This document shows positions 48,645 through 60,627 of a stretch of DNA of 64,000 nt, in pieces. Numbering within the stretch: the stretch's first letter is position 1; the number at the start of each line of letters is the position of its first letter. Source of the stretch: Actinomycetota bacterium. Its GTDB lineage: Bacteria > Actinomycetota > UBA4738 > HRBIN12. The position numbers and the translations under genes are program-made. The notes below the pieces were generated by a model. That model saw nothing but the letters and a program-made list of their open reading frames with translations, was not told where the DNA came from and searched no databases. The DNA is taken from NCBI GenBank assembly GCA_040004125.1, contig JBDUBL010000003.1, positions 8,392 to 72,391 of the forward strand, read 5' to 3'.

Positions 48645-49288
48645 CTTGACGGCGGGTACACGATCACGAACGCCGTTCCGATCACCTTATCTTCCGGGAC
48701 GAGACCGACGCCCGTCGGTGGTTCATACCGGGAATCGCCCGAGTTGGCCCGGTTGTCCCCCAGCACGAACAGCATCCCATCGGGAACCGTCACGGGCCCG
48801 TAAGGAGTGGTGTCGATCTCGGGATTCAGATACGGTTCGTCGACCTGCTCTCCATTGACGAACAGCTTCCCGTCATGCAGCTCGACGACGTCACCGGGTA
48901 GACCGATCACCCGCTTGATGAAGTCCTCGTTCTCCGGTTGCGCGACGCCGATACCCTCACCGAGCCAGTGCAGCGCGTCCCCGATCGTTCCCTGGTCCGG
49001 TCCCGCCGTGGGGTGTGGATCGGAGAACACGATCACGTCGCCGCGCTGGATGTCGCTGACGTGCAGACAGATCCGACACACGAGGACGCGATCGCCCTTC
49101 TCCAGAGTCGGTGCCATGGAGATCGACGGGATGAAGAAGGCTTGGATCAGGAACGTCTTGACGATGATCGCGATCGCCAACGCGGCGATCAACAGGATCG
49201 GGAGTTCACGCCAGGACCGATCGGCGCGCTCGCCATCCGGGTGCTCGCAGGGCGTCGGCGCCACTACATCGCCGGGCCGCTCGGCCAC
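48629..49288 (-). CDS. lepB: Signal peptidase I
   Basis: 219 aa with a TM anchor, Ser box IPSISMAPTL, Lys box FIKRVIGLPGD and GDNRANSGDSR. Confidence 0.94.
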   Translation of the reverse strand: MAERPGDVVAPTPCEHPDGERADRSWRELPILLIAALAIAIIVKTFLIQAFFIPSISMAPTLEKGDRVLVCRICLHVSDIQRGDVIVFSDPHPTAGPDQGTIGDALHWLGEGIGVAQPENEDFIKRVIGLPGDVVELHDGKLFVNGEQVDEPYLNPEIDTTPYGPVTVPDGMLFVLGDNRANSGDSRYEPPTGVGLVPEDKVIGTAFVIVYPPSRWGSL

Positions 49289-49291
49289 GGG

Positions 49292-49801
49292 TTAGCCCTC
49301 GGCTGGTTCTTCCGCGGATTCCTCGGCGGCGGCCTGGTTCTCGATAGGTGCGTCCGATCCGTCGGCGACGATCTCTGCTTCCTCGTCCGCCTTCCCGGCT
49401 TCGGCCGTCTCCGCCGCGGCCTCGGCGGCGGCCTCCATCGCAGCCAGCTTGGCGTCGTCGATCCGGCGCTCCTTGATGCGGGCCTTCTTGCCTCGCAGGT
49501 CGCGCAGGTAATACAGCTTGGCGCGCCGCACCCGCCCGCGCTGCACGATCTCGAGCTTGGCGATCGAGGGCGAGTGCACCGGGAACGTACGTTCCACGCC
49601 GACACCGAACGAGATCTTGCGCACGGTGAAGGTCTCGCGGATCCCGCCACCGGAGCGGCGGATCACGACGCCCTGGAACACCTGGACGCGCTCACGATTC
49701 CCCTCCACCACGCGGACGTCCACTTTCACGGTGTCGCCGGGGCGGAATTCCGGGAGGTCCGTGCGCAGGAACGGCTGCTCGATCAGATCAGTCTTGTTCA
49801 T
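49292..49801 (-). CDS. rplS: 50S ribosomal protein L19 with ~50-aa acidic/Ala-rich C-terminal tail
   Basis: Trimmed from track ORF 49292-50008 to ATG 49801 ([27 protein letters not shown]...). The conserved L19 core ends near ...[10 protein letters not shown]. Confidence 0.95.
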
Positions 49802-49865
49802 GGCAACGGCTCGCGATTGTACCAGCGGGCCGACGCCGTCTGCGGCGATTCGCCTGTAACACCTT

Positions 49866-49881
49866 GTGACGGAACCGTCAC
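49866..49881. promoter_or_regulatory. Perfect 16-bp palindrome GTGACGG-AA-CCGTCAC in the rplS / DUF4153 divergent intergenic region
   Basis: Read directly from the sequence. It has GTGA/TCAC half-sites spaced 8 nt apart, versus 6 nt in canonical CRP boxes. Candidate operator. Confidence 0.3.
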
Positions 49882-49945
49882 GAACCGATGCTGACGCCGT
49901 GTCACGTCTTGCGCCGGGGATTCCGCCGTCTGAAGCTCCCGGCGC

Positions 49946-51469
49946 ATGGACGACACCACCGCGATCGCTCGTTCCCTTCCTGCGAGACCTGATCGGCGGA
50001 GCCGGCACGCGGGAACCTGGGGGGGTGTCGCCGCGGCTTGCGCGTTCGGATTCCTTGCCGACGCCGCGGCGCGGACACCCAGCGGCCTCGCGCTGACCCT
50101 GGCGACCTGGCTCGCGGGTGCTGCGGTCATTACGTTCGTGCGACCGCGTCGCGCCGGCGCGCCGTTCGTCGTCGCGGCGTGCGCGATCGGCGCCTGTCTC
50201 ACACTGCGCGCGTCCCCGGTCCTGACAGGGCTCAACGTGCTCGCCGCAGGTGCGCTGTTGTGCGCCGGAGCTTCGTTTGCGAGGCTCGGCACGCCGATCG
50301 CGACGACGACTCGCTCCTACCTGGCACGGCTCGTGTGGAGTCCACTGCAGGCGATGCCGGAGGGCGCAGCCAGCCTTGCCGGCCCGCCAACCCGCCTCCT
50401 GCGCTCATGGCGAGGCACGGCGGGGGGTCTGGCGCGTGGGTTGCTCCTCGTCGTGCCCGTCGCCCTGGCGCTGCTGGTGTTGTTGGCCAGCGCCGACGCG
50501 GTGTTCGCCCGGTATGTCCGAGTCCCGATCCGGGTGGCGCCTGGCTCGATCGCCTCGCGCGCGCTCGTGCTTGCGGTCGGAGCACTGGCGCTCGCGACAC
50601 TTGTTGCCATCGGCACGCTGGGCCCCTCGACGATCGACGCGGCAGCGCAACGGCCGGTCCGCGCTGCGTGGGCGCGGGCCGGCGACTGGGTCGCACTGCT
50701 TGTGGTGGCCGACGTCATCTTCGGGGCCTTCGTAGCGGTGCAGTTCACGGTCTTCTTCGGCGGGCGCGCGCAGGTTCTGACCGCCGAGGGGCTTACGTAC
50801 GCGCAGTACGCGCGTACCGGCTTCTGGCAACTGCTCAGTGCCACTGCGATCGCCGGGGGCGTCCTTGCCTTCGCCTGGGCTGCGCTGCCGCGCCCCCTGC
50901 CGCGGGGCGTCCGCCTGGTGTTCCAGGCGCTCGGCCTCACCCTGATCGTGTTCGTGCTCGTGGTGCTCGTATCGGCGTTCCATCGGCTGGCGCTGTACGA
51001 GGATGCATATGGCTACACGTGGCTGCGGGTGTTGGCGCACACCGCGATCCTGGCGATCGGTGCACTCCTGCTCTGCGCCATGGTGACGGTCGTGCGCGGT
51101 CGAGCGGCGTGGCTGCCCTTCGCGGCCGTCGTGATCGCGACTGCTGCGGTGCTCGGTCTCAACGTCGTGAACCTGGATGCGTTCATCGCGACGCGGAACA
51201 TCTCGCGGGCGGCGAACGGGGCTCCGCTAGATGCCAGAGAGCTGACGCGGTTGTCCGCCGACGCCGCGCCGACGATGGCGGCCGCGCTCGATTCGCTGAC
51301 CCCGGCCGCGCGCACCGACTTCGAAGGCATTCTGGCGTGCATGCGCGACCAACTCGAACGACAGACCGCGAGCGGCTGGGCCGGGAGCAACTGGGGGCGT
51401 AACCTCGCCCTCGAGGCGCTCACGGAGCGCCGTCTCCCGCCGTGTCGAGCTCCGCGAGGACCCTTCTAG
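49946..51469 (+). CDS. DUF4153/DUF4173-like polytopic membrane protein
   Basis: 507 aa with more than 10 TM segments and the conserved-looking [14 protein letters not shown] segment typical of that family. Assigned by eye. Confidence 0.65.
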
Positions 51470-52146
51470 CGCTGCTTCTCGCCGAGGTCGGGGCGGTTGC
51501 GCGCGGTCTTGGCGCGTGCGGCGTCGCGACGCCATGTCTCGATGGCTGCGTGGTCGCCCGAGACCAGCACTTCCGGCACACGCAGGCCTCGGAACGCCTG
51601 CGGCCGTGTGTAGTGGGGGTGATCGAGCAAACCGGACTCGCTGAAGGAATCGCGCGCGTGGGACTGCTCCTTGCCGATCACGCCGGGGAGCAGGCGCGTG
51701 ACCGCTTCGACGAGGACGAGCGCTGGCAGCTCTCCTCCGGACACGACGTAGTCGCCGATCGAGACTTCCTGCGCGGGGAGGCCGTCGATGACCCGCTCGT
51801 CGAACCCCTCGTAGCGCCCACACAACAGCGTGAGGTGTGGCTCTGCGGCAAGCTCGACCACGAGCGTCTGGTCCAGTCGGGGCCCCGAAGGCGACAACGC
51901 AAGCACGCGACCTCGGTCCGGATCGAGCGACTCGACCGCTGCGAACAGCGGCTCCACCCTCAACACCATGCCCGGGCCACCACCGAAGGACGCATCGTCG
52001 ACACTGCGGTGCGTATCCAGGGACCAGTCGCGCAGATCGTGGATGCGCACATCGACGAGACCACTCTCGATCGCCCTGCCGAGCAGGCTCTCGGTCAGGA
52101 ATCCAGGGAACAACCCCGGGAAGATCGTGATGATGTCGATACGCAC
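51466..52146 (-). CDS. trmD: tRNA (guanine37-N1)-methyltransferase
   Basis: 226 aa from a GTG start, with MRIDIITIFPGLF and GGELPALVLVEAVTRLLPGV. Confidence 0.95.
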   Translation of the reverse strand: MRIDIITIFPGLFPGFLTESLLGRAIESGLVDVRIHDLRDWSLDTHRSVDDASFGGGPGMVLRVEPLFAAVESLDPDRGRVLALSPSGPRLDQTLVVELAAEPHLTLLCGRYEGFDERVIDGLPAQEVSIGDYVVSGGELPALVLVEAVTRLLPGVIGKEQSHARDSFSESGLLDHPHYTRPQAFRGLRVPEVLVSGDHAAIETWRRDAARAKTARNRPDLGEKQR

Positions 52147-52187
52147 GCCCCGAGGCTACCGCGCCCCGTCGGCGCGGCCTCGTGGCG

Positions 52188-52430
52188 TCAGTGGCGGAAG
52201 GGGATCGTCAGCAGCGTCGCGGTGGAGGCCGCGACCCGGCGGATCGACGTTGCGCGCTGCGCCGACCGGCGCGCGGCGATACTGCGGCTGGCCCGGTGGC
52301 CTTCCGCGATGCGGACCATGTCGTTCACCCGGTACTTGGCAGCGTCTCCGTTCAGCATCTGCGCACCCCCTGTGTCGATGGCAACAGCGTAGGAATCGAG
52401 GTCTGCTGTCGCGATGACGACCGTCACCAT
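52188..52430 (-). CDS. Hypothetical 80-aa protein (not listed as its own ORF in the track)
   Basis: ATG 52430-52428 lies inside the 163-aa track ORF 52188-52679. Sequence: MVTVVIATADLDSYAVAIDTGGAQMLNGDAAKYRVNDMVRIAEGHRAS... then an Arg/Ala/Ser-rich tail. By hand count 68 of 80 third positions are G/C, and position-2 composition is coding-like. The stop lies 41 nt upstream of the trmD start. No Shine-Dalgarno sequence seen. Confidence 0.4.
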   Translation of the reverse strand: MVTVVIATADLDSYAVAIDTGGAQMLNGDAAKYRVNDMVRIAEGHRASRSIAARRSAQRATSIRRVAASTATLLTIPFRH

Positions 52431-52458
52431 CGACGTGTGTCGTCGGCGACCGATCCGG

Positions 52459-52474
52459 TGTGATGCGCGACACG
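52459..52474. promoter_or_regulatory. CRP-like box TGTGA-TGCGCG-ACACG (8/10 to TGTGA-N6-TCACA) in the divergent promoter region
   Basis: Read directly from the sequence. It lies 84 nt upstream of the M50-CNB start and 29 nt upstream of the 80-aa ORF start. It overlaps the 8-bp-stem palindrome cgacacgc-gggaa-gcgtgtcg (52468-52488). Confidence 0.3.
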
Positions 52475-52557
52475 CGGGAAGCGTGTCGGGTTGCGGGAAC
52501 CGCCCCCCTCGGGCAGGATGCGTTCCGGCCGTTCGCTTCCGGAGTCCGAGGAGGAGT

Positions 52558-54849
52558 ATGCAGTACCTGATCCTCGCCGCGCTGCTCATCGCGGGCTCGA
52601 TCGTGGGCGTCGACGCGATCCGCGAGCGCGCCGCCCGCCGCAAAGCGTTGCACGTTCCTGGTCTCGTCTCCGCCGCCATCCGCTCGCAAAGTCAGCCCGG
52701 AAGGCCGGTTGCACCGGCTCTGTCGGCATCGCTGGCGGCGGCGCCTCCGACCGAGGGCGACGCCGGAGGGTTGTGGGACGAGCTGACGGCGATGCTCGAT
52801 CCCGAGACGTTCGCGCCCACGCTCGCGGAGGGCACCGAGATCAAGAACTTCAAGATGCGCTGGGGCAACGACTTCGCGATCGTCGCTCGCCCCGACCACG
52901 CCCTCCATTTCGAGCTCCAGCCGTGGGAGGCGACGCTCATGGCGCAGATGGACGGCACGAAGACAGCGCAGGAGCTGATCGTCGATCACCTGCAGGCGGT
53001 CGGCGATCTCGATCCCGGCGCTGTGCTCGGGCTGATCGTGGCGCTGCGTGAGGGAGGGTTCCTCGATCCCGCCCGACCGGATGTGAAGGTGCTGGTGCAG
53101 CTGCACCTCGATCGCGCCTCGGCGGGCCGGCGGAAACTCCGCGACTTCGCGAAGAACCTCCGGATCTCGTGGTCAGGAGCGGAGCGATTCGTCGAGGGCG
53201 CGTATCGGGGCGGCCTGAAGCTCTTCTTCCGCCCTGTCATGGTTGTGCTCTGCTCCATCGTGGCGTTGGTCGGCCTCGTCGCGTTCATCGGCGTGCAGCA
53301 ATCGGGGCGCTATCAACTGTCGACGACCGCAGCACCGGTTGAGACCCTGCTGTTCCTCGCACTCGCCCTCTTCCTCACCTTCGCCCACGAGCTGGGGCAC
53401 GCCGTGGCGCTGATCCACTACGAGCGTCGGGTGCTCGGCGCCGGCTTCTTCATCTTCTTCGGGTCGCCGGCCTTCTTCGTCGACGCGTCCGACGGTTTGA
53501 TGTTGGATCGCCGTGAGCGGGTCGTGCAGTCGTTCGCGGGGCCGTTCTCGGAGATGATTCTCGCCGGCGTTGCCTCCCTCGTGATCGTGGCCACCCCGGG
53601 CAGCGGTGTCGCGGCGTTCCTCTACCGGTTCGCCCTGATCAACTACTTCTTGATCTTCATGAACCTGATCCCGCTGCTGGAGCTCGACGGGTACTGGATC
53701 TTCTCGGACCTGATCCAGGTGCCGAACCTGCGGCGGCGCTCGATCAACTTCATCCAGGGCGACCTGTGGCACAAGATCGCCACATGGGAGAAGTTCAGCC
53801 TGCAGGAGCTCGGGCTCGGCTTCTACGGGATCGTCGGGATCGCGTTCACGATCTTCTCCTTCTACACCGCCTACTTCTTCTGGAAGGAGATCTTCGGCGG
53901 CCTGATCACCAGCCTGTGGGAGGGTGGGTTCGGCTCACGGATCCTGCTGGTGTTGCTTGCCTTGGTGTTCATCGGTCCGCTGATCCGCGGGCTGCTCACG
54001 CTCGGGCGGAGCGTGTACAAGCGTCTGAAATCGATCCGCGATCAGATCAGGTTCCGCGTGCAACGGTCGTGGCGGATCGAGGCGGCTGCGTTGATCGATG
54101 CGCTCCCCGCCTTCGACGACCTCGACGAGAACGTGCTGTCGGATCTCGCGGGCCGGATCGAGCTGGTGACCGTTCGCGACGGCCAAGCAGCGTTCCGCCG
54201 CGGCGACGTCGCCGACGCGTTCTACGTCGTGCGCTCCGGCACGATCCATATCGAAGACGAGGATCTCGAGGAGGGCGACACCCGAATCATCACCACGCTC
54301 GGGCGTGGCGACGCCTTCGGCGAGTTTGGGCTCATGGGCTCCGGCGTGCGAGCGGCCACCGCGCGCGCCGAAGGTGAGGCGACGCTGTTCCGCGTCGACA
54401 AGGCATCGTTCGATCGGCTGCTCGCCGACGACATCGACGCGCCGGACTTCGCCCCGACGATGCAGGCCTACGCCGAGCTTCGCTCGCTGCCGCCGCTGCG
54501 GACCTTGTCCACGACTGACCTCGCCCTCGTCCTGGAGCACGGCGAATGGCGCAACGTGGCGCCCGGGGAGCGACTGATCCGGCAGGGCGAAGCCGGCGAT
54601 GCCTTCTTCGCGATCGGCGCCGGACAGGTTGACGTCGAGAGGGACGGTGCGATCATCGCCACCCTCGGTCCCGGCCAGCACTTCGGCGAGATCGCGCTGT
54701 TGACCGACGAGCCACGCAATGCCAGCGTGACCGCGCACACGCCGCTGCGGGTCTTCGTTCTGGATCGCGAGGGATTCATCCGCGTGATCGCTCGAACGTT
54801 CCGACGCGGCGCGGCGGAACGAACACCCGACCGGAACATGGAGCACTGA
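52558..54849 (+). CDS. Polytopic M50-family (site-2-protease-like) metalloprotease with PqqD-like segment and two C-terminal cyclic-nucleotide-binding domains
   Basis: Trimmed from track ORF 52414-54849 to ATG 52558, directly after GAGGAGGAG, giving 763 aa. HELGH at 53386-53400 and NLIPLLELDG at 53662-53691. Phosphate-binding cassettes FGEFGLMGSGVRAATARA (54316-54369) and FGEIALLTDEPRNASVTA (54682-54735). Residues ~95-170 resemble PqqD/RRE. Confidence 0.85.
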   Translation: MQYLILAALLIAGSIVGVDAIRERAARRKALHVPGLVSAAIRSQSQPGRPVAPALSASLAAAPPTEGDAGGLWDELTAMLDPETFAPTLAEGTEIKNFKMRWGNDFAIVARPDHALHFELQPWEATLMAQMDGTKTAQELIVDHLQAVGDLDPGAVLGLIVALREGGFLDPARPDVKVLVQLHLDRASAGRRKLRDFAKNLRISWSGAERFVEGAYRGGLKLFFRPVMVVLCSIVALVGLVAFIGVQQSGRYQLSTTAAPVETLLFLALALFLTFAHELGHAVALIHYERRVLGAGFFIFFGSPAFFVDASDGLMLDRRERVVQSFAGPFSEMILAGVASLVIVATPGSGVAAFLYRFALINYFLIFMNLIPLLELDGYWIFSDLIQVPNLRRRSINFIQGDLWHKIATWEKFSLQELGLGFYGIVGIAFTIFSFYTAYFFWKEIFGGLITSLWEGGFGSRILLVLLALVFIGPLIRGLLTLGRSVYKRLKSIRDQIRFRVQRSWRIEAAALIDALPAFDDLDENVLSDLAGRIELVTVRDGQAAFRRGDVADAFYVVRSGTIHIEDEDLEEGDTRIITTLGRGDAFGEFGLMGSGVRAATARAEGEATLFRVDKASFDRLLADDIDAPDFAPTMQAYAELRSLPPLRTLSTTDLALVLEHGEWRNVAPGERLIRQGEAGDAFFAIGAGQVDVERDGAIIATLGPGQHFGEIALLTDEPRNASVTAHTPLRVFVLDREGFIRVIARTFRRGAAERTPDRNMEH

Positions 54850-54859
54850 GGAGGATCCG

Positions 54860-55072
54860 ATGGTGTGTTGGCATTGCCGCCGGACGGCGGTCGGCTCCTG
54901 CCGATTCTGTGGGCGTGGCGTGTGCGAGGACCACGCCAAGGAGCAGCCGTACGTCCTCGAGCTCTTCCGAGGCGGCGATATGACCCGCGCCCTCGTGGTC
55001 GAGGACGCCCTGTTCTGTGGAGCGTGTACGCCTCGACCGGATCCGATCGACCTGCCTGAGCTAGACGAGTGA
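54860..55072 (+). CDS. Small 8-Cys zinc-ribbon protein (DUF2180-like / B-box-like; family assignment tentative)
   Basis: 70 aa: MVCWHCRRTAVGSCRFCGRGVCEDHA...FCGACTPRP. The Shine-Dalgarno sequence GAGGAGGA (54848-54855) overlaps the stop of the upstream gene, with a 10-nt gap to the ATG, indicating translational coupling. Confidence 0.7.
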   Translation: MVCWHCRRTAVGSCRFCGRGVCEDHAKEQPYVLELFRGGDMTRALVVEDALFCGACTPRPDPIDLPELDE

Positions 55073-55083
55073 CGTTCGTCACA
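55068..55083. promoter_or_regulatory. Near-consensus CRP/GlxR-type box AGTGA-CGTTCG-TCACA
   Basis: 9/10 match to TGTGA-N6-TCACA and internally palindromic (GTGACG-TT-CGTCAC). It overlaps the stop codon of the Zn-ribbon gene and lies upstream of the small repeat ORF and crp. Confidence 0.5.
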
Positions 55084-55090
55084 CATCTGC

Positions 55091-55106
55091 CGTGACGGAA
55101 AGCACC
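55091..55106. promoter_or_regulatory. Second, weaker CRP-like box CGTGA-CGGAAA-GCACC
   Basis: 7/10 match to the consensus. Its centre is 23 bp from the first box. Confidence 0.25.
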
Positions 55107-55151
55107 GAGCGGATGTGACCCGCGATACCGACGACTCGGCGTTCCAGCGGG

Positions 55152-55361
55152 ATGATGCCGACATTGCACCGGCCCAAGAGGGCCCCGGACAGAGGGAGCG
55201 GCGAGATGGGCGACAAGAAGATTCAGCCGAAGCGGCCCGAGGGCGAGCAGGCGGCAGCGGGGATCCGCGATGCCGAGAAGACGTCGGCGCGGCGCTTCAG
55301 TGCGAGGCGCTGGAGTGCGAGGCGCTGGAGTGCGAGGCGCTGGAGTGCGAAGAGGGTCTGA
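55152..55361 (+). CDS. Small basic protein ending in a (S-A-R-R-W/F)x4 repeat; likely start at ATG 55206 (51 aa)
   Basis: Track ORF of 69 aa. GAGGGAG (55192-55198) lies 7 nt before ATG 55206. By hand count 44 of 51 third positions are G/C. TGA is at 55359-55361, 20 nt before a perfect hairpin. The reading frame across the repeat itself is ambiguous (see findings). Confidence 0.4.
   Translation: MMPTLHRPKRAPDRGSGEMGDKKIQPKRPEGEQAAAGIRDAEKTSARRFSARRWSARRWSARRWSAKRV
55291..55350 (+). repeat. Tandem direct repeat, 4 x 15 bp (GGCGCT[TC/GG]AGTGCGA)
   Basis: Copy 1 (55291-55305) is ggcgcttcagtgcga. Copies 2-4 (55306-55350) are identical, ggcgctggagtgcga. Confidence 0.95.
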
Positions 55362-55380
55362 GCCAACGAACTGGTGGCAC

Positions 55381-55412
55381 GAAAGGCCCGGGCCCGATGG
55401 CCCGGGCCTTTC
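55381..55412 (+). terminator. Perfect 14-bp-stem hairpin (gaaaggcccgggcc-cgat-ggcccgggcctttc)
   Basis: Read directly from the sequence. It lies 20 nt after the small-ORF stop and 56 nt before the crp ATG. There is no U-tract on either strand, so it may be an I-shaped terminator or processing site, possibly bidirectional. Confidence 0.5.
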
Positions 55413-55467
55413 GCTTGATCCGCGCCGGGTAGCGGAGACCCGCACCTTGCCGGTAGGCTCCACCACG

Positions 55468-56169
55468 ATGGCCGCTACCACCGACGCCGGGCTCGTTCCC
55501 GCCATGGCCTCCACCCCCGTGCTCCGGGGTGTCCCCCAGGAGCATGTCGAGAAGCTCGCCTCGCAGGGGGCGGTGCACCGCTTCCGCCGTGGCACCTACA
55601 TCTGCCACCAGGGGGATCCCTCCCCGGACGTGTATTTCCTCCTCGAGGGGCGGATCGAGATCGCCTCCTTCTCCCCGACCGGCGCTCGGATCCTGCACGC
55701 GTCCGTCGACACACCGCAGTTCTTAGGCGAGCTCGGTGTGCTCGGGAACCTCCCCCGGGGCGCCGATCTGCTCGCCCTCGAGGACACCGATGTGTGGACG
55801 ACGCCCGGGGATGACTTCATCGACTTCATCACGAGGCAGCCGGGAGCCGCGCGCCAGCTGCTGGCCGCTCTCGCGCGGCAGATCCAGGAACACCAGGCCT
55901 TCTCCGACGACCTGCTGTACCTCGACCTCAAGGGGCGGGTCGCGAAGCGGCTGCTCCAGATGGGCACGTCGTCGCTCGACGATCTCCCCGATGCAGGGAC
56001 GTCGGTGCCCGCGCTTACGCACGCGGACCTCGCCAGTCTCTGCGGCGGCAGCCGCGAGAACGTGACGCGGATCGTGGCGGACTTCCAGCGCCGCGGCATG
56101 GTGAACCGCGACGGGAAACGCTACATCTTGAAGAACCCCGTGCAGCTGGCCAAGATCGCCGGGCTCTAG
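55468..56169 (+). CDS. Crp/Fnr-family transcriptional regulator (CNB domain plus C-terminal HTH)
   Basis: Trimmed from track ORF 55270-56169 to ATG 55468 (MAATTDAGLVPAMASTPVLRGVPQEHVEKL...), giving 233 aa. CNB cassette FLGELGVLGNLPRGADL and HTH THADLASLCGGSRENVTRIVADFQRRG. TAGGCT (55454-55459) lies 8 nt before the ATG, suggesting a leaderless transcript. Confidence 0.88.
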   Translation: MAATTDAGLVPAMASTPVLRGVPQEHVEKLASQGAVHRFRRGTYICHQGDPSPDVYFLLEGRIEIASFSPTGARILHASVDTPQFLGELGVLGNLPRGADLLALEDTDVWTTPGDDFIDFITRQPGAARQLLAALARQIQEHQAFSDDLLYLDLKGRVAKRLLQMGTSSLDDLPDAGTSVPALTHADLASLCGGSRENVTRIVADFQRRGMVNRDGKRYILKNPVQLAKIAGL

Positions 56170-56684
56170 CCCGCGTCGTCGGGAGCCGTCAGTCCGGGCA
56201 GATCCCGTACGACGGCACGGCCGCCGGGGATATCGACCGAAACCACGAGATCGTCCACGGCAGGGATCAAGGTCTCGGTTCCGGGATCGGCGACGACGCG
56301 CCAGAGATCCTGGGCCGGGTAGGGCAGGACCTCGGCGATGCGGCCGATGGCTCTTCCGGACTCCGTCACGACATCGAGGCCCTCCACCTGATGAGACCAC
56401 CACCGGCCCTCGGGCAACTCCGGAAGCCAGGACTCGGGAATGAGCAGCTCGATACCGGCCACAGCTTCGGCCTCCGTTCGATCGCCGATCTCCTCGAAGG
56501 TCACGAGCAGTCGCTCGCCGTGCGGGCGGACGGTGCGCACGGTGTACGTGTGGCCCGTCGCGTCGAAGACGACCGCGCCGGGCACCCAGCGCTTGGGGTT
56601 GTCGGATCGGCTCTGCACGGACAACTCACCGCGCACACCGTGGGGCTTGGCGATGCGGCCGACGGTCACCGTCGGCTCGTCCAT
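56166..56684 (-). CDS. rimM: 16S rRNA processing protein RimM
   Basis: Trimmed to ATG 56684 (MDEPTVTVGRIAKPHGVRGELSVQ...), giving 172 aa. Sits in the conserved position after the KH protein. Confidence 0.93.
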   Translation of the reverse strand: MDEPTVTVGRIAKPHGVRGELSVQSRSDNPKRWVPGAVVFDATGHTYTVRTVRPHGERLLVTFEEIGDRTEAEAVAGIELLIPESWLPELPEGRWWSHQVEGLDVVTESGRAIGRIAEVLPYPAQDLWRVVADPGTETLIPAVDDLVVSVDIPGGRAVVRDLPGLTAPDDAG

Positions 56685-56685
56685 C

Positions 56686-56916
56686 TCAGTCCTCGAAGTC
56701 GACGCGGGCCGCCAGGTCCTGGCGCGACGCGGCTGCGCGCACGACCGTGCGGATCGCCTTGGCGGTGCGGCCACCACGGCCTATCACCTTGCCGAGCTCA
56801 CCGGGGGCCACCGTCACGCTGTACGTAGGGCCTCGCTCGTCGAATCGCTCGCCGACGCGCACGGCGTCGGGGTCATCGACCAACTCGCGGCATAGGAACT
56901 CGACGAGCTCCTTCAC
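56686..56916 (-). CDS. KH-domain RNA-binding protein (YlqC/UPF0109)
   Basis: 76 aa with LGKVIGRGGRTAKAIRTVV. Confidence 0.92.
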   Translation of the reverse strand: MKELVEFLCRELVDDPDAVRVGERFDERGPTYSVTVAPGELGKVIGRGGRTAKAIRTVVRAAASRQDLAARVDFED

Positions 56917-56917
56917 C

Positions 56918-57376
56918 TCAGGCCTCGGCCGTCTCCTCGGCGGGCGGAGCCTCGACAGCCACCTCCGTGGCGACCGCAGCCGCTTCCTCGACCGGGGCGG
57001 GCTTGGGCGCCGCGGCGGTCTTCACGGCCTGGGCGGCCTTGGCCTGCGCCTTCTTCGACACCTTCTCCTTGGCGGGGCGCTCGGTCTTGGTCTTGACGCC
57101 GATCGTGGCGCTCGGACGCTCCTTGACGAAGGTCTCCCAGATGCCGAGCTTGCTCATGAGGTTGCGAACCTGGTTCGATGGCTGGGCCCCCACCCGGAGC
57201 CAATGCAGCGCACGCTCCTCGTCGATCTCGATCAGCGAGGGGTCGCTCAACGGGTGATACTTGCCGATGTTTTCGATGAAGCGGCCGTCGCGGGGTGCCC
57301 GTTGGTCGGCCACCACTACGCGGTAGAAGGGCCGACCCTTCGATCCCATCCGCCGCAACCGGATCCTCGTCGCCAT
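56918..57376 (-). CDS. rpsP: 30S ribosomal protein S16 (with Ala/Lys/Glu-rich tail)
   Basis: 152 aa: [35 protein letters not shown]... Confidence 0.96.
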
Positions 57377-57405
57377 TCCTGTTCGTCCTTCGATCTCGTT
57401 GGAAG

Positions 57406-58749
57406 CTATCTCGTTGGAAGGTTCTGGGGCATCTTCATGCCCGGTCCGCGTTTGCCGCCCATCATCGACCGCATCATCTTCCTCGCGCCCTCGAAGTCCT
57501 TGAGCAGCGTGTTGACGTCGGCCGTGCTGGTCCCGGACCCGTTCGCGATCCGGAGACGGCGCGGTCCGGAGATGATACCGGGTTCCCGCCGCTCCTGGGG
57601 CGTCATCGACAGGATGATGGCCTCGGCACGGGCAAGCTCACCCTCGTCGATCGCGCCGGCCAGTTCCTCCATACCGGCCTTCCCGCCAGGCACCCCGGGC
57701 AACATCTTCAGCAGGTCCTGGATGGGCCCAAGCTTCCGCATCTCCCTCAGCTGGCCCAGGAAATCCTCGAGGTTGAACTGACCCGACAGCATCTGCTGCG
57801 CGGCCTTGGCGGCGGCCTCCTGATCGAGCGTGTCCTGCGCCTTCTCGATCAGGGTCAGCACATCGCCCATGCCAAGGATCCTGCCCGCCATGCGGTCGGG
57901 GTAGAACGGCTCCAGGTCATCGACCTTCTCCCCGGTGCCGGCGAAGAAGATCGGGCGACCCGTCGCGGCCGTCATCGACAGCGCAGCGCCCCCTCGGGCG
58001 TCGCCGTCGAGTTTCGTCAGGATGAACCCGGTCGTGTCGACCTCGTGCATGAAAGCCCGCGCCTGGACGACGGCGTCCTGACCGGTCATCGCGTCGCAGG
58101 CCATGACCACGTGATGAGCCTTGGTGACATCCTTGATCTTGCGCGCTTGCTTCATCATCTCGGGGTCGACATGGAGCCGTCCGGCCGTGTCGATGATCAC
58201 CACGTCGGCGCCGGTGCGCTGGGCTTCCTTCACACCGTTCTTCGCAAGCTTCACCGGGTCGCGCCCTTCCGACCACACGGGCACGCCGATCTCGCGACCC
58301 AGCGTACGGAGTTGTTCGACGGCAGCGGGGCGCTCGAGATCGGCGGCGATCAGGAGCGGGCGCTTGCCTTTGCCTTTGAGATGCTTCGCCAATTTGACAC
58401 AAGCCGTCGTCTTGCCCGAGCCCTGTACGCCCGCCAGCATGATCACGGCCGGATTGGCACCCGGCAGCGTGAAGGGATGATGTTCGCCTCCGAGCGTGAC
58501 CGTCAGCTCCTGGTCCACCACCTTCACGACCTGTTGCGCCGGCGTCAGGCTCTTGAGGACCTCTTCGGACAGCGCCCGGGCCCGTACACGCGCGATCAGG
58601 TCGTCGGCAACCTCGACGGACACGTCGGCCTCCAGCAGGGCCGTGCGGATCTCCGCCAGCGCGTTGTCCACCTGTTTGGGGTGGAGTTTGCCCCGGCTGC
58701 GGAGCTTCTTGAAAACGCCGTCGAGGCGATCGCTCAGGGTGTCGAACAT
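57406..58749 (-). CDS. ffh: Signal recognition particle protein Ffh
   Basis: Trimmed from track ORF 57406-59496 to ATG 58749 ([22 protein letters not shown]...). Contains [22 protein letters not shown] and a Met-rich M domain. Confidence 0.96.
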
Positions 58750-58824: not shown

Positions 58825-60627
58825 ATGAACGGGGCGGATAGCGAAGCGGCAAGGCTCGAGCGACACCTGGTCTGGCTGCGGTGGCTGGTGGCCGCCTTCG
58901 GGGCGGTCCAGGTCGGGTTTGCCGTCCGCGATCGGGGCCACGACCCGGCGTTCGCGCTCCCCTTGGCTGTGGCGCTGGTGATCGGCCTCACCGTGGGGAA
59001 CCTGGCGATCGCGAGCTCGGTCCGCAGGGCGACGAAGCCCACGCAGTTCCGCGCGATAGGCGTGGTTGCCTTCGTGCTCGACGCCGTCGTGATCCTCGGC
59101 CTCGTCTGGCTGGTTCCCAGCGGTCCGGCGGACCCCGTCTGGGTCCTCGGGTACCTCGTCCCGCTCGAGGGGGCGGCCCGATGGGGGCTGCGCGGCGGCC
59201 TGATCGGCGCCACCTTGTTCCTCGGGGAGCAGATCATGCAGGAGGCGGCCCGTGCCCAGGTCGCCGCCGGCGCTTCCCAGGTGTCGTTCCGCGCCGGGAT
59301 GGCCTTCGTGATCGGCGCCGTCACCGGTTCCTTCGTCTCGTCGTTGCAGCGCACCGCCGCCACCGCGGCGGCGAAGGCGGCCGAGGCGGCCGAGGCGGCC
59401 CAGCGCGCCGAACTTGCAGCGGCGCAGGCATCCGAGGCGCAGCGCGAGATCGCGGCGTTCCACGCCGCCGTGTTGTCCGACGCGCAGCCCGAACATCTCG
59501 CCGAGACGCTGCGGTCGACCGCCGGGCGGATCGCCGCGGAGCTCGAGTGCGAGGCCCTCGGGCTGCTCACGAGATCAACCGGGGCGGCCGGAGAGGTGAT
59601 CTTTGCGGTCGCGGGGGTGCATGGCGACCCGGGCTATCTGCTCGGTCAGCGGTTGTCGCCCGTCTCCGATCCCGTGGCCGCAGCTGCGATCGACGGCGAA
59701 ACGGTGGTCGCGCAGGGCGACGTCGTGGCGCCGATGCGAGTTCGAGGCAAGGTGGTGGGCGCCGTCCACGAGCGCGCAACGACGAGCCCCGATCCCGCCC
59801 GCATCGACGCGCTCCAGACGATCGCGGACCAGCTGGGTGTCGCGCTGGAGGCTACGCGCCTGCGCGCCGAGCAGGCCGCGATCGTCGAACGACTGACCGA
59901 GCTCGACACGATGAAGAGCGACTTCGTTGCGATCACGAGTCACGAGCTGCGCACCCCGCTGGCCGGGATCCGAGGCTTCGTCGACATGTTGTTGCGTCGT
60001 GGTCCCGAGCTGTCGCCGGCTGAGCAGCAAGAGTACCTCGGCATCGTCCAGACGCAGACCGAACGTCTGATCCACCTGGTGGACGATCTTCTCGTCGTCT
60101 CACGCGTGGAGGGCGATGCGCTGACGCTGGAGCCCACCGACATCGCGATCCGTTCGGTGCTGGCCCAGGTCGTTGCCGGGCTTGGCGAGTCCGGCGTCCG
60201 CATCGCGCTGGAAGAGGCTCCCGGCGCGCCCTCGACGTTGACGATCGACCCGAATCGCCTGATCCAGATCCTGACCAACCTGACCCACAACGCGGTGAAG
60301 TTCTCTCCCGCAGACGCGGTCGTCCGGCTCCGCTGGTCGGCGCCGGCGGAAGGAACGATCGTGTTCGAAGTGATCGATCGCGGCCCGGGCATCCCGCCCG
60401 CCGAGCAGCAGCTGATCTTCGAGCGATTCCGGCAGCGCGGCGACCACCGCTCCCACGCCGAGGGGTTTGGACTCGGTCTCTATATCACGAAGCTGTTGAC
60501 CGAGGCGATGGGCGGGTGGATCGACGTCACGTCGTCTCGCGAGGGCACGACGTTTCGGGTCACGCTTCCGGTGGCCCGTCCGTTGCCAACACCCGCTCGA
60601 CCGTCCGCAGCAACGCGGTCGGACTGA
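58825..60627 (+). CDS. Sensor histidine kinase (N-terminal ~5-TM domain, coiled coil, GAF, HisKA, HATPase_c)
   Basis: 600 aa. GAGGGAA lies upstream of ATG 58825. H-box ITSHELRTPLAGI, N-box LTNLTHNAVKF, G-boxes DRGPGI and GFGLGLYI. A GAF-like region lies at about residues 230-340. Confidence 0.9.
   Translation: MNGADSEAARLERHLVWLRWLVAAFGAVQVGFAVRDRGHDPAFALPLAVALVIGLTVGNLAIASSVRRATKPTQFRAIGVVAFVLDAVVILGLVWLVPSGPADPVWVLGYLVPLEGAARWGLRGGLIGATLFLGEQIMQEAARAQVAAGASQVSFRAGMAFVIGAVTGSFVSSLQRTAATAAAKAAEAAEAAQRAELAAAQASEAQREIAAFHAAVLSDAQPEHLAETLRSTAGRIAAELECEALGLLTRSTGAAGEVIFAVAGVHGDPGYLLGQRLSPVSDPVAAAAIDGETVVAQGDVVAPMRVRGKVVGAVHERATTSPDPARIDALQTIADQLGVALEATRLRAEQAAIVERLTELDTMKSDFVAITSHELRTPLAGIRGFVDMLLRRGPELSPAEQQEYLGIVQTQTERLIHLVDDLLVVSRVEGDALTLEPTDIAIRSVLAQVVAGLGESGVRIALEEAPGAPSTLTIDPNRLIQILTNLTHNAVKFSPADAVVRLRWSAPAEGTIVFEVIDRGPGIPPAEQQLIFERFRQRGDHRSHAEGFGLGLYITKLLTEAMGGWIDVTSSREGTTFRVTLPVARPLPTPARPSAATRSD

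Follow-up and report, generated by a model that had tools for sequence, protein, structure and literature searches.

The genes lying between trmD and rimM in this genome belong to a conserved module, the gene content, domains, motifs and promoter boxes of which are maintained, and inherited together, between genomic contexts and across deep divergence. Its carriers are uncultured soil actinobacteria. We interpret it as a conserved cyclic-nucleotide-responsive, Crp-driven peptide-processing module, a reading that could as readily prove wrong as right and in which all of the biochemistry is inferred.

Gene content and inheritance of the module

The window, meaning the whole stretch of 64,000 nucleotides that was analysed, contains about 4 kb of + strand genes between trmD and rimM (Table 1). 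These encode a protease, the 70-aa protein ZnR, a small basic protein (SBP) formed by a repeat ORF with a hairpin behind it, and a Crp/Fnr regulator, the stop codon of which overlaps that of the convergent rimM by 4 nt. The module now parts trmD, together with a 56-aa gene (smORF), from rimM.

Table 1. Coordinates of the module, its putative regulatory sites and its flanking genes
Feature	Position	Strand	Basis or remark
trmD flank	51466-52146	-	PF01746 match, 196 bits
smORF, 56 aa, MLNGDAAKYRVNDMVR...TLLTIPFRH	52188-52358	-	conserved frame and ribosome-binding site in alignment
Weak CRP-like box GATGACGACCGTCACC, 7/10	52413-52428		divergent smORF/protease promoter region; read from sequence
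CRP-type box TGTGATGCGCGACACG, 8/10	52459-52474		84 bp before protease ATG, 100 bp before smORF ATG
Polytopic metalloprotease, 763 aa	52558-54849	+	Pfam, NCBIfam, 35-sequence alignment, AlphaFold2, fold searches
ZnR, 70 aa	54860-55072	+	10 nt past protease stop; own GGAGGA site
CRP box array, three boxes, 23-bp spacing	55068-55129		sequence and conservation
Box 1 AGTGACGTTCGTCACA, 9/10	55068-55083		overlaps ZnR stop codon
Box 2 CGTGACGGAAAGCACC	55091-55106		array member
Box 3 TGTGACCCGCGATACC	55114-55129		array member
Candidate -10 hexamer GATGAT, SBP promoter	55151-55156	+	offset from box 3; no transcript data
SBP, 51 aa, MGDKKIQPKRPEGEQAAAGIRDAEKTSARRF(SARRW)x3SAKRV	55206-55361	+	locus comparison
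Hairpin, 15-bp perfect stem, 4-nt loop	55380-55413	+	-39.9 kcal/mol, z = -6.3
Candidate -10 hexamer TAGGCT, crp	55454-55459	+	8 nt before Crp ATG; read from sequence
Crp/Fnr-family regulator, 233 aa	55468-56169	+	Pfam; likely start ATG 55468
rimM flank	56166-56684/56777	-	matches RimM and PRC_RimM

Most claims of a preliminary description, made without database searches, were upheld: a block of about 4 kb with opposite-strand genes between rimM and trmD, a 763-aa M50-type protease with two cyclic-nucleotide-binding (CNB) domains, a small basic ORF with a 4x15-bp repeat and a perfect hairpin, and a Crp/Fnr regulator, likely starting at ATG 55468. From comparison with other loci, the SBP start is most likely ATG 55206 and not 55152. 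The claim of an 8-Cys protein of 70 aa held in part, the eight conserved ligands being seven Cys and one His; this protein, described as translationally coupled, has a ribosome-binding site of its own and a start codon 10 nt beyond the protease stop. The gene list was incomplete, the conserved smORF having been missed. When the profiles named in that description were run, CNB passed easily, HTH_Crp_2 was present, M50 was marginal despite invariant catalytic motifs, DUF2180 fell just short and PqqD gave nothing. The boxes claimed at 52459-52474 and 55068-55106 held and were joined by another at 55114-55129.

Conservation was assessed in loci L001-L090, with proteases 49-92% identical, counting only loci long enough to tell. 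ZnR lies behind the protease in 78/78, Crp is present in 48/48, and SBP in 66 of 67, L035 being the sole exception. The proposal of a single functional unit is therefore supported by co-localisation in every locus long enough to tell. A search from the ZnR side recovered ten places, all with a + strand gene ending 10 nt upstream; in four of them that gene is annotated, with M50 and cNMP-binding domains. The unit lies between trmD and rimM in 52 loci, between rplS and trmD in 3, and beside moaA, groES and a prmC-like gene in 7-11. Its composition is unchanged through these three genomic contexts, which indicates that the module travels as a unit.

ZnR is retained even beside protease relatives only 32-39% identical, and one of these retains Crp and three boxes. 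In L097 (34% identity), where ZnR persists together with Crp and an array of three boxes spaced 23 bp apart, the gene behind the boxes encodes an NHLP-clan RiPP-precursor-like peptide; L096 has two NHLP-clan peptides at the cargo position. These cargo peptides score 43-71 bits against NF038399 (cut-off 40). Another relative, L095, encodes two tandem 52-aa peptides starting MTKSIDPQDP, and a divergent ECF sigma factor, itself next to a 129-aa protein, is encoded beside one distant relative.

The label "island", used in the preliminary description, is misleading, because the module matches its flanks in composition, a search around it found no flanking repeats, and the arrangement is also present in relatives with a protease merely ~50% identical. 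The module is situated in the core ribosomal-protein/ffh region and is apparently inherited vertically down to ~50% protein identity. As in the preliminary description, which reported no nucleotide cyclase in the window, Pfam revealed no cyclase domain in 36 of the 39 large ORFs (≥150 aa, picked by a codon-composition filter). The window also encodes a canonical Rip1/RseP-like S2P, at 30967-32079.

The protease and its small neighbours

The protease begins at ATG 52558 behind the ribosome-binding site GGAGGAG. An N-terminal TM helix is followed by a PqqD-like RRE fold (~residues 87-170), a HExxH/LDG M50-type membrane core (~225-500) and tandem CNB-A/CNB-B domains (~505-750), and the C-terminus carries an invariant R759...H763. 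In an alignment of 35 homologues, the HExxH residues H277/E278/H281 and a second motif, N369-L-I-P-L-L-E-L-D377-G (NxxPxxxLDG), are invariant; the AlphaFold2 model places them in predicted helices 260-287 and 350-386, with a beta-hairpin between the two. The match to Peptidase_M50 (PF02163) is marginal, at 29.3 bits against a cut-off of 27.2, and partial (profile positions 143-195 of 221), and many homologues score below the cut-off. With the model of residues 72-500 (pLDDT 78.4) as Foldseek query at E ≤ 10, the 50 best of its 107 matches included no solved S2P (MjS2P, RseP, SpoIVFB).

The best curated match is the daptide intramembrane metalloprotease NF041824 (161.6 bits, E 3e-47, residues 106-449), which falls short of the equivalog cut-off of 300 bits, and the locus has none of the tailoring genes of a daptide biosynthetic neighbourhood. 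The YydH/LiaK family NF058609 is matched at 46 bits, its cut-off of 225 not being reached, and the module lacks a radical-SAM gene, the adjacent epimerase that is a criterion for that family. By sequence, the protease belongs to the M50 branch containing RiPP leader peptidases.

The top PDB fold matches for residues 72-500 were to TbiB1 bound to leader peptide, with TM 0.64-0.65, rmsd 3.7 A and probability 1.0 for the best three chains, and with weak E-values of 0.04-0.1. The predicted secondary structure of the N-terminal domain (E94-98, E106-110, E117-120, H122-129, H137-148, H153-165) fulfils, in the model, the three-strand plus three-helix winged-helix criterion of PqqD/RRE; Pfam PqqD gave no match in the protease even at E ≤ 10. 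The domain is predicted by the model to be a PqqD-type peptide-recognition fold, and its binding of a peptide is inferred. The two CNB domains are matched by cNMP_binding (PF00027) at 137.9 bits, E 1e-40. Residues G588, E589, R598 and G710, E711, R720 of their phosphate-binding cassettes are invariant, and the tandem pair matches the CNB-A/B pair of PKA-R and PKG in a fold search (E 1e-19) and TIGR03896 weakly. That they bind cAMP or cGMP is inferred, there being no binding data. Relatives of the protease core (RRE plus M50) number 9,398 when clustered at 50%, and CNB domains were still present in 9 of 10 distant core relatives sampled. The names found for family members are all automatic, and no study of an M50-CNB fusion was present in the full-text literature searched.

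ZnR has the motif CxxC-x7-CxxC-x4-CxxH-x27-CxxC, constituting two zinc sites, and an acidic tail ending in DLPELDE. All eight ligands, the His being His25, are kept in 80 sequences, and identity between loci is 69-99%, exceeding the conservation of the protease. ZnR scores 20.4 bits against DUF2180 (PF09947), the threshold being 22.2, and a precomputed PF09947 match exists for a few homologues. ZnR is the invariable partner of the protease, encoded in the same, inferred, operon.

The smORF has a strong ribosome-binding site; it runs divergently from the protease gene, with trmD 41 nt downstream of it. It was found by tblastn in 31 loci, in all three contexts, staying within ~1 kb of the module, and gene callers had called it in L098, L100 and L101; it was not detected beside the distant relatives examined. 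Its N-terminal part is charged, its C-terminal segment is hydrophobic, 13 residues long and closed by a His, the last four positions read P-[FIV]-[KR]-H wherever the end is readable, and neither Pfam nor NCBIfam gave a family match. It is a tentative candidate for a fifth module component, and could conceivably be an alternative substrate or an inhibitor of the protease.

Promoter boxes, Crp and the SBP gene

Three to four CRP-type boxes, spaced 22-24 bp apart, follow the ZnR stop codon, and at least one box is present in 76/77 loci. Box 1 has the consensus wGTGACGnnCGTCACA, a 14-bp palindrome (76/77 loci). Box density behind ZnR is 16.5 per kb versus 0.13 per kb in the background, an enrichment of ~120-fold. 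The number of boxes within the window alone is not above chance (10 found, 13.8 expected), so that their significance rests on conservation between loci and not on the in-window count; the preliminary argument that matching boxes denote one unit holds on that basis only. The duplicated loci that were inspected carry a separate box for every SBP copy, and the SBP-less L035 is also without boxes. In the divergent smORF/protease promoter region, the TGACG..CGTCAC core of the 7/10 box is kept in close relatives and is weak evidence by itself. The 8/10 box has counterparts at the same offset in L001, L002, L004 and L006; in L008 and L009 a box lies ~57 bp upstream.

Box 3 is centred 29.5 bp upstream of GATGAT, corresponding to about -41.5. 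Hexamers that carry A in second and T in sixth place occur at the exact offset in 27/73 loci, and a further 13/73 have the same motif shifted by 1 bp, giving a total of ~40/73 at 29.5 ± 1 bp; most of the remaining loci have a fourth GTGAC-type half-site downstream of box 3. GATGAT may be the -10 of the SBP promoter, an inference made without transcript data.

The Crp protein contains the Pfam domains cNMP_binding, HTH_Crp_2 and Crp. Its cassette GELG..PRxA is conserved and its recognition helix SRENVTR is invariant in 54 orthologues, retaining the R-E-x-x-x-R pattern. Such a helix reads TGTGA in E. coli CRP. The best NCBIfam match is the E. coli CRP equivalog NF008732, at 68.6 bits with a cut-off of 266. 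The criteria for the CRP/FNR family, namely a CNB domain with C-terminal HTH_Crp_2, an RExxxR helix and palindromic sites near genes, are fulfilled. In other loci TACGCT or TAGGCT is present at the position equivalent to the putative crp -10 hexamer, the closeness of which to the Crp ATG suggests a leaderless or near-leaderless crp mRNA. Binding of Crp to the boxes, and whether it activates or represses, is inferred without binding data, and it is possible, again by inference, that trmD comes under Crp control.

Within the SBP gene, the DNA tandem repeat (55287-55350) has a period of 15, 4.3 copies and 93% matches. The compiled SBP family of 75 members, 78 after three later additions, combines a conserved N-terminal motif, M-A-[ED]-K-K-I-x-P-K-x-P, with a basic repeat tail that is hypervariable. 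Every peptide repeat is in frame, net charge ranges from +9 to +29 and length from 35 to 111 aa, and there are 1-2 copies per locus; a database of 5.8 billion proteins holds only 2 clusters. SBP has no match to the NHLP-clan families TIGR03793 and NF038399, and its tail weakly resembles H1-like nucleic-acid binders (Hc2, Rv3852) at the low-complexity level. The RiPP precursor pattern, in which a conserved leader precedes a variable core and an RRE and leader peptidase are close by, is fulfilled at the level of pattern only. The hairpin behind SBP is likely a terminator despite its poor U-tract, and equivalent GC-rich hairpins are found behind SBP in other loci.

Proposed mechanism, rival explanations and known systems

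We propose that the module is composed of a chassis and a cargo. The chassis would be the M50-type membrane protease, with a cytoplasmic RRE in front and the PKA-R-like CNB pair behind, together with the 70-aa two-zinc partner ZnR and the Crp/Fnr regulator. The cargo would be a small peptide gene directly behind three to four CRP boxes, here the polybasic SBP. Rising cAMP (or cGMP) would cause Crp-cNMP to switch on the SBP promoter, with the proximal box at about -41.5 as in class II promoters and the upstream boxes as helper sites. The same nucleotide would bind the CNB domains of the protease and relieve auto-inhibition. The RRE would dock the conserved N-terminal region of SBP, and the membrane-embedded active site would cut it, parting the leader from the polybasic tail. 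Nucleotide binding, Crp binding, proteolysis and the choice of substrate are all inferred, as is what becomes of the product and what it does. The preliminary description had left open a regulated intramembrane proteolysis (RIP) module or a peptide-processing module. The evidence favours the latter because RiPP peptidase families are closest, the PqqD/RRE fold is present and relatives have NHLP-clan cargo. The substrate, thought there to be perhaps an adjacent small protein, is now by preference, and by inference, SBP. None of the computational tests run met the grounds for refutation given there, which included orthologues never co-localised and CNB or M50 regions failing HMM thresholds.

Several points count against this reading. 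Its biochemical steps are all without experimental support. SBP is without a hydrophobic segment; the classical substrates of site-2 proteases span the membrane, whereas SpoIVFB and RiPP M50 enzymes cut non-transmembrane ones. No S2P structure was recovered for the membrane core among the best 50 of 107 Foldseek matches, and the RRE match is weak (E 0.04-0.1), with Pfam PqqD silent. The reading gives no role to ZnR, the most conserved component; another genomic Crp paralogue could serve the boxes, and SBP could be a plain Crp-regulon gene. The module is not a canonical RiPP cluster, since it lacks a modifying enzyme, an ABC transporter or other exporter, and an immunity gene, and no post-translational tailoring enzyme was present in any context examined.

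The best-surviving rival, although unlikely, is classical RIP, in which the CNB-gated protease would cleave a membrane-associated regulator (the smORF product or a distant anti-sigma factor), SBP being merely a co-regulated Crp-regulon product such as a histone-H1-like nucleoid or ribosome binder. In its favour are the M50-type HExxH/LDG core, the persistence of the smORF with its hydrophobic C-terminal segment near the module in three contexts, the divergent ECF sigma factor and 129-aa neighbour beside one distant relative, the weak likeness of SBP to Hc2, Rv3852 and H1-like basic repeats, and the precedent of SpoIVFB, a nucleotide-sensing S2P under small membrane proteins (PMC9042235). Against it, the smORF hydrophobic stretch is too short for a membrane span and the smORF was not detected beside the distant relatives examined; a canonical Rip1/RseP-like S2P is already in the window (30967-32079); the closest curated families are RiPP peptidases and not RseP/SpoIVFB; the RRE fold implies docking of a free peptide; and the NHLP-clan precursor behind the boxes in relatives is left unexplained.

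We regard two further explanations as very unlikely. In the first, a minimal bacteriocin/RiPP-like export system, SBP would be a secreted cationic antimicrobial or signalling peptide, the production of which cAMP switches on, and the M50 protease would remove the leader and export the product, as proposed for EpeP/YydH. EpeP is thought both to cleave and to export (PMC10885120), a precedent for this scheme, the protease has homologues in YydH/LiaK and the daptide peptidases, SBP is a multi-copy polycation that diversifies fast, relatives have NHLP-clan cargo, and TIGR03896, a "bacteriocin-type transport-associated protein", is a weak match to the CNB pair. However, the unit is without a modifying enzyme, ABC transporter or immunity gene, no export signal was found, and the core ribosomal-protein/ffh location and apparent vertical inheritance are unusual for bacteriocin loci. 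In the second, negative control, the protease, perhaps with ZnR as adaptor, would destroy SBP or ZnR depending on the nucleotide signal, and the module would be a switch on cytoplasmic polycation level rather than a maturation system. The same co-occurrence and regulatory evidence applies to it, a PKA-R-like tandem CNB could inhibit or activate, and the close 1:1 tie of ZnR to the protease in the operon points to a subunit or adaptor. The conserved-leader/variable-tail layout, however, suits a peptide that is recognised and then released better than one that is disposed of. A single endoproteolytic cut is the usual action of M50 enzymes, which also speaks against destruction; no data discriminate between negative control and maturation. 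Finally, that these are unrelated neighbours merely lying between trmD and rimM, as the chance-level box count within the window alone might allow, is all but excluded by order and content conserved in L001-L090 through three contexts, by the persistence of ZnR and Crp beside 32-39%-identical relatives, and by the ~120-fold box enrichment.

A bolder form of the peptide-processing reading is possible, though less likely than not. The cAMP/cGMP-gated intramembrane metalloprotease would be a new class of bacterial cyclic-nucleotide effector, forming with an obligate zinc-ribbon subunit and dedicated Crp a portable chassis that releases unmodified ribosomal peptides, and the product in this lineage would be a fast-evolving polycationic repeat peptide acting inside the cell on the ribosome or nucleoid. 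If this is true, cAMP signalling would be tied to a ribosome-biogenesis locus. Known bacterial cAMP/cGMP effectors are mainly transcription factors, with a few enzymes (e.g. Pat acetyltransferase) and channels. If real, a membrane protease gated by such nucleotides would add proteolysis to these and represent an undescribed route from cAMP-type signals to peptide processing. The large protease family is uncharacterised, and the module offers a candidate neighbouring substrate, an invariable 70-aa partner and defined operator-like sites, binding to which is inferred. It also shows the rpsP-KH-rimM-trmD-rplS operon to be stably interrupted, and includes a family of small basic repeat proteins almost never reported by gene callers.

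Among known systems, SpoIVFB of Bacillus subtilis is an S2P/M50 protease with a C-terminal CBS domain, the substrate Pro-sigmaK and the inhibitors BofA and SpoIVFA; it cuts the N-terminal pro-region off a non-transmembrane substrate, and small partners fill its active-site cleft (PMC9042235, PMC11486902). The module protease is likewise a membrane HExxH/LDG metalloprotease with a C-terminal cytoplasmic domain of the nucleotide-sensing type. Unlike SpoIVFB, it has tandem CNB instead of CBS and an extra N-terminal RRE fold, is closer in sequence to RiPP peptidases with no fold match to solved S2Ps recovered, and has partners, ZnR and smORF, unrelated to BofA and SpoIVFA. RiPP-associated M50 peptidases are membrane proteases acting on small ribosomal peptides encoded nearby (PMC10885120), and those of NF041824, NF058609 and TglG/TmoG are the best curated matches, spanning the RRE through the membrane core. 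The module protease differs in scoring far below their cut-offs (161.6 vs 300; 46 vs 225), in having no aminotransferase, radical-SAM or other tailoring gene nearby, and in its CNB domains, which to our knowledge have not been reported on RiPP-associated M50 peptidases.

The C-terminal 250 residues of the protease superpose on the tandem CNB of PKA-R/PKG (E 1e-19, 25-32% identity) and have cassettes of the same FGE..PR(A/S/N)A(T/S) type; the membrane protease of the module carries its pair in cis, whereas PKA-R binds its kinase in trans. The RRE shares with the lasso-peptide protein TbiB1 (PDB 5V1U/5V1V) three strands then three helices over ~90 aligned residues, and unlike PqqD-type elements has no sequence-level match. 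NHLP precursors pass through an export cassette that cleaves off the leader (PMC2887384). The cargo genes of L096 and L097 are of the NHLP clan, as in NHLP/Nif11 systems, but SBP of the window is not an NHLP member, and cleavage would be by M50 and not by a C39-peptidase ABC transporter. TIGR03896 ("cyc_nuc_ocin") has two CNBs and bears the NCBIfam description bacteriocin-type transport-associated. The regulatory part of the module resembles CRP-dependent class II/III promoters (E. coli CRP, actinobacterial CRP/GlxR) in its TGTGA-N6-TCACA palindromes, RExxxR helix, proximal site at about -41.5 and further upstream sites, and differs from them in having three to four sites at 22-24-bp spacing.

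A conserved gene unit between trmD and rimM

The genes encoding the M50-type protease with two cyclic-nucleotide-binding (CNB) domains, the zinc protein ZnR, the small basic repeat protein SBP and the regulator Crp are found together in other genomes. Homologous loci were collected from genomes (7), metagenomes (80) and exact look-ups (6), a scan of the genome collection with a single protein having yielded only 7 close relatives. Wherever there is sufficient DNA the order is protease, ZnR, SBP, hairpin, Crp, and among loci L001-L090 the protease is accompanied by ZnR in 78 of 78 cases, by Crp in 48 of 48 and by SBP in 66 of 67. The preliminary description had proposed one functional unit, and when co-localization was checked in other genomes the genes did co-occur. 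The unit is present in three genomic contexts: between trmD and rimM (52 loci including the window), between rplS and trmD (3 loci), and at an unrelated site (7-11 loci) with genes for a prmC-like methyltransferase, groES and UPF0047 upstream and moaA downstream. Signs of a mobile island were sought, and there was neither a composition shift relative to the flanks nor flanking repeats, so that the original label of an island has failed. We conclude that the arrangement is old and vertically inherited and not a recent insertion.

In other respects the description of the 4-kb block separating trmD and rimM held, with corrections. The tandem repeat and the perfect hairpin were both confirmed, the count of eight cysteines in the zinc protein was not, and a conserved small gene, smORF, a candidate fifth component of the unit, was missing from the gene list. 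The claim that the window encodes no nucleotide cyclase held for 36 of 39 large ORFs (at least 150 aa, chosen by a codon-composition filter), in which no cyclase domain was found.

Positions of the features (window coordinates unless a locus is named)
Feature	Position	Strand	Remarks
Canonical site-2 protease, Rip1/RseP-like	30967-32079	-	PF02163, 158 bits; few hundred bp from ispG (GcpE)
L19	49292-50008	-	longest ORF; acidic, Ala/Glu-rich C-terminal extension
DUF4153 polytopic membrane protein	49946-51469	+	507 aa; opposite strand, between rplS and trmD
trmD	51466-52146	-	
smORF	52188-52358	-	56 aa; strong ribosome-binding site; 41 nt upstream of trmD
Protease-promoter box, weaker	52413-52428		200-bp divergent region between protease and minus-strand small gene
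Protease-promoter box, stronger	52459-52474		same 200-bp region
Protease	from 52558 (ATG)	+	763 aa; GGAGGAG ribosome-binding site upstream
ZnR	starts 10 nt past protease stop	+	70 aa; own GGAGGA site
SBP	from ATG 55206 (likely)		51 aa; start from comparison with SBP in other loci
15-bp tandem repeat	55287-55350		4.3 copies
Hairpin	55380-55413		perfect 15-bp stem; -39.9 kcal/mol, z = -6.3
Crp	from ATG 55468 (likely)	+	8 nt past TAGGCT -10-like hexamer; CNB, HTH_Crp_2 and Crp domains
crp/rimM overlap	56166-56169		4 nt
rimM	56166-56684	-	
S16	56918-57376	-	longest ORF; long Ala/Lys/Glu-rich C-terminal extension
HisKA/HATPase sensor kinase	58825-60627	+	opposite strand, between ffh and ftsY
Upstream gene, third context	L063 4937-5971; L068 5114-5950; L078 4977-5711; L079 4916-5974		
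Palindrome	L094 6994-7100		directly after ZnR
Tandem peptides	L095 3242-3400 and next copy		downstream of ZnR
Split protease	L099 1867-3491		251-kb contig

Around the unit, the window has the gene content expected of a core actinobacterial region (ftsK, rnj, pnp, truB, infB, nusA, ispG, tsf, xerC, rnhB, lepB and rplS, on through ffh, ftsY and smc). A canonical site-2 protease (S2P) is encoded in the same genome, which makes the CNB-fused protease a further, divergent M50 paralog. The DUF4153 gene makes a second break in the same rplS/trmD/rimM operon and is present in only some relatives (L003, L033, L034, L046, L047 and L052, with a fragment in L099). The crp and rimM genes converge stop over stop, and their overlap leaves no space for a terminator between them. 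The sensor kinase gene is kept in the examined relatives L008, L009, L010, L091 and L092, where a response-regulator gene follows it. An Rfam scan of 49000-58000 found no riboswitch or sRNA, the sole match being a weak one of the hairpin to an unrelated sRNA terminator, and a scan for promoter and terminator consensus sequences was uninformative in this GC-rich DNA.

The gene directly upstream of the protease in the third context is conserved, its longest ORF being at most 244-352 aa, and it ends in an ATGA overlap with the start of the protease gene. Its product has a beta-rich ectodomain between an N-terminal signal or transmembrane segment and a C-terminal transmembrane helix, and belongs to no Pfam family. 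The proteases of these loci (L063, L068, L078 and L079) are without the N-terminal transmembrane helix present in the window protein. In L099 gene calling splits the protease in two (443 and 98 aa), and the Crp there is truncated; the copy could be frameshifted or degraded, or the assembly could be in error.

The protease and its zinc protein

Pfam recognizes two cNMP-binding domains in the protease (137.9 bits) and gives a marginal and partial match to Peptidase_M50 (29.3 bits, cut-off 27.2). The nearest NCBIfam model to residues 106-449 is the daptide intramembrane metalloprotease (161.6 bits, cut-off 300), and YydH/LiaK scores 46 bits (cut-off 225); on these scores the protease is related to RiPP leader peptidases and belongs to neither family. 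The HExxH and NLIPLLELDG motifs are invariant among homologs; each lies in a predicted helix, and a beta-hairpin separates the two. Full-length homologs number more than 1,000, all with automatic source names that include "cyclic nucleotide-binding domain-containing protein" and "putative peptide zinc metalloprotease protein".

A full-length AlphaFold2 model (pLDDT 75.7) matches the tandem CNBs of PKA-R and PKG in fold (E 1e-19), and Glu and Arg are retained in both phosphate-binding cassettes. Because the CNB matches swamped the fold search with this model, a second model was made of residues 72-500 (pLDDT 78.4, pTM 0.69). Its top PDB matches are to the lasso-peptide recognition protein TbiB1 with bound leader (TM-score 0.64-0.65, rmsd 3.7 A over ~90 residues), with a probability of 1.0 for the best three chains, yet an E of only 0.04-0.1. 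An earlier guess of a PqqD-like domain, the RiPP peptide-recognition (RRE) fold, thus held at the level of fold and not at that of the Pfam PqqD model, which did not match the N-terminal domain and so made the fold search necessary. A sequence search of residues 75-500 against PDB gave nothing usable, and no solved S2P was recovered for the membrane core by the fold search with the 72-500 model.

In ZnR, seven Cys and His25 form four CxxC/H knuckles; these eight ligands are all conserved across 80 sequences. ZnR is the most conserved part of the unit, being 69-99% identical across loci and better conserved than the protease. When the identical ZnR protein was looked up, a plus-strand gene ended 10 nt upstream in 10 of 10 places and had M50 and cNMP-binding domains wherever annotated (4 places). 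The last residues of the protease (R759...H763) are invariant and are modeled with low confidence. It is possible, no more, that a C-terminal His, invariant in the protease (..MEH) and in smORF (..[KR]H), serves in one of them as a zinc-ligand switch.

The small basic protein and its regulatory DNA

Read across the loci, the ZnR-Crp spacer shows one or two copies of SBP (35-111 aa) with a strong ribosome-binding site. The N terminus is conserved (M-A-[ED]-K-K-I-x-P-K-x-P), an AA(T)RVTKK motif is found in the middle of many members, and the tail is composed of in-frame, lineage-specific basic tandem repeats, the unit being SARRW in the window and KRVHA, RRVH, KKLSH, KKQLA, KRQT, RNA, KATKAV, LKKTGRAG or KPKQTI elsewhere. 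At least three perfect copies are present in 33 of the 75 compiled members, with 18 different units. Net charge ranges from +9 to +29, and none of the members has a hydrophobic stretch. SBP is a real, overlooked gene: it is nearly never called by gene callers, and since a homolog search gave only 2 clusters among 5.8 billion proteins, the family was read directly from the loci. Pfam and NCBIfam contain no curated family for it, only sub-threshold low-complexity likeness to Hc2, Rv3852 and H1-like proteins.

The Crp cassette retains GELG..PRxA, and the recognition helix SRENVTR is invariant. The R-E-x-x-x-R pattern, as in SRENVTR, reads TGTGA in E. coli CRP. The CRP-type boxes reported in the preliminary description for both promoter regions are present; within the window alone TGTGA-N6-TCACA-like sites are at chance level (10 vs 13.8 expected), and the significance of the boxes therefore rests on their conservation across loci. 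When 8 or more of 10 positions are required, at least one box lies within 130 bp past the ZnR stop in 76 of 77 loci, at 16.5 per kb vs 0.13 per kb elsewhere. Box 1 (consensus wGTGACGnnCGTCACA) overlaps the ZnR stop codon, and the array has three or four boxes at 22-24 bp spacing. An A2/T6 hexamer ((C/G)A(T/G/C)GAT) is exactly 29.5 bp from the center of box 3 in 27 of 73 loci and is offset by 1 bp in another 13; in most of the remainder box 3 is followed by a fourth GTGAC-type half-site. By inference, without transcript data, this geometry would correspond to a site at about -41.5. Inspected two-copy loci have one box per SBP copy, and the sole locus without SBP is also without boxes. The stronger protease-promoter box has the same offset in close relatives.

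Distant relatives, interpretation and known systems

Clustered at 50%, the relatives of the RRE and M50 core number 9,398 (E <= 1e-3), and CNB domains are present in 9 of 10 sampled distant members (28-41% identity, 645-1,156 aa). For the CNB pair there is a weak match to TIGR03896, a two-CNB "bacteriocin-type transport-associated protein". In long forms of ~1,000-1,170 aa (P0279, P0287 and ~40 other representatives), an unassigned insert of roughly 400-600 aa separates the membrane core from the CNB pair. One sampled distant member, P0303 (921 aa), is fused to a C-terminal AhpC/TSA peroxiredoxin domain.

The neighborhoods of distant loci L094-L097 indicate that protease, ZnR, Crp and box array persist and that the peptide gene behind the boxes is exchanged. 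In L097 (34% identity to the window core), Crp is upstream, and ZnR is followed by three CRP boxes at 23-bp spacing, found nowhere else in that locus, and then an NHLP-clan peptide. L096 (32%) has a shortened ZnR, a rubrerythrin-family gene and a pair of NHLP-clan peptides that exceed the NF038399 cut-off. Leader-cleaving machinery acts on NHLP peptides, which are recognized as precursors of RiPP type (PMC2887384). In L095 (39%), ZnR precedes two tandem 52-aa peptides starting MTKSIDPQDP, and in L094 (32%) ZnR follows the protease, with no Crp and no CRP boxes. The L095 peptides (MTKSIDPQDPTAIPRRGIAASVTRMWRRLTN...) begin with K-x-I-x-P-x-x-P, which resembles the SBP head. Short AGGCT(A/T)CAGGCT-like repeats in L094 form a long imperfect palindrome.

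Our best reading, as likely to prove wrong as right and with every biochemical step inferred, is a Crp-cNMP-driven, nucleotide-gated peptide-cutting module. Crp-cNMP would switch on the cargo gene, the same nucleotide would relieve a PKA-R-like inhibition of the protease, the RRE would dock the conserved head of the peptide, and the membrane active site would cut it.

The rival that survives best, and remains possible, is classical regulated proteolysis whose target is either smORF or an unlinked regulator, SBP being no more than co-regulated. The smORF gene is conserved in 31 loci and in all three genomic contexts, and at the third, non-ribosomal site, where there is no trmD close by, it lies upstream of the protease. 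The N-terminal part of its product is charged and the C-terminal segment of 13 residues hydrophobic; the protein ends in P-[FIV]-[KR]-H wherever readable, and has only sub-threshold, low-complexity matches in Pfam and NCBIfam and no family. Degradative control, in which the protease would dispose of SBP or ZnR, is unlikely, and a minimal secreted cationic-peptide system is also doubtful. Chance adjacency, with co-occurrence as consistent as it is, is all but excluded.

In the full-text literature searched we found no description of an M50/S2P protease with CNB domains, and neither the combination nor the invariable zinc partner nor the repeat-peptide cargo appears to have been described there. 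Since known relatives exist for every one of its parts, the proposed nucleotide-gated module is nevertheless not categorically new. Closest in sequence are the RiPP M50 peptidases EpeP/YydH, the daptide protease and TglG/TmoG (PMC10885120). Closest in working principle is SpoIVFB, an S2P with a C-terminal CBS domain that removes the pro-region from a non-transmembrane substrate and whose cleft is occupied by small proteins (PMC9042235, PMC11486902).
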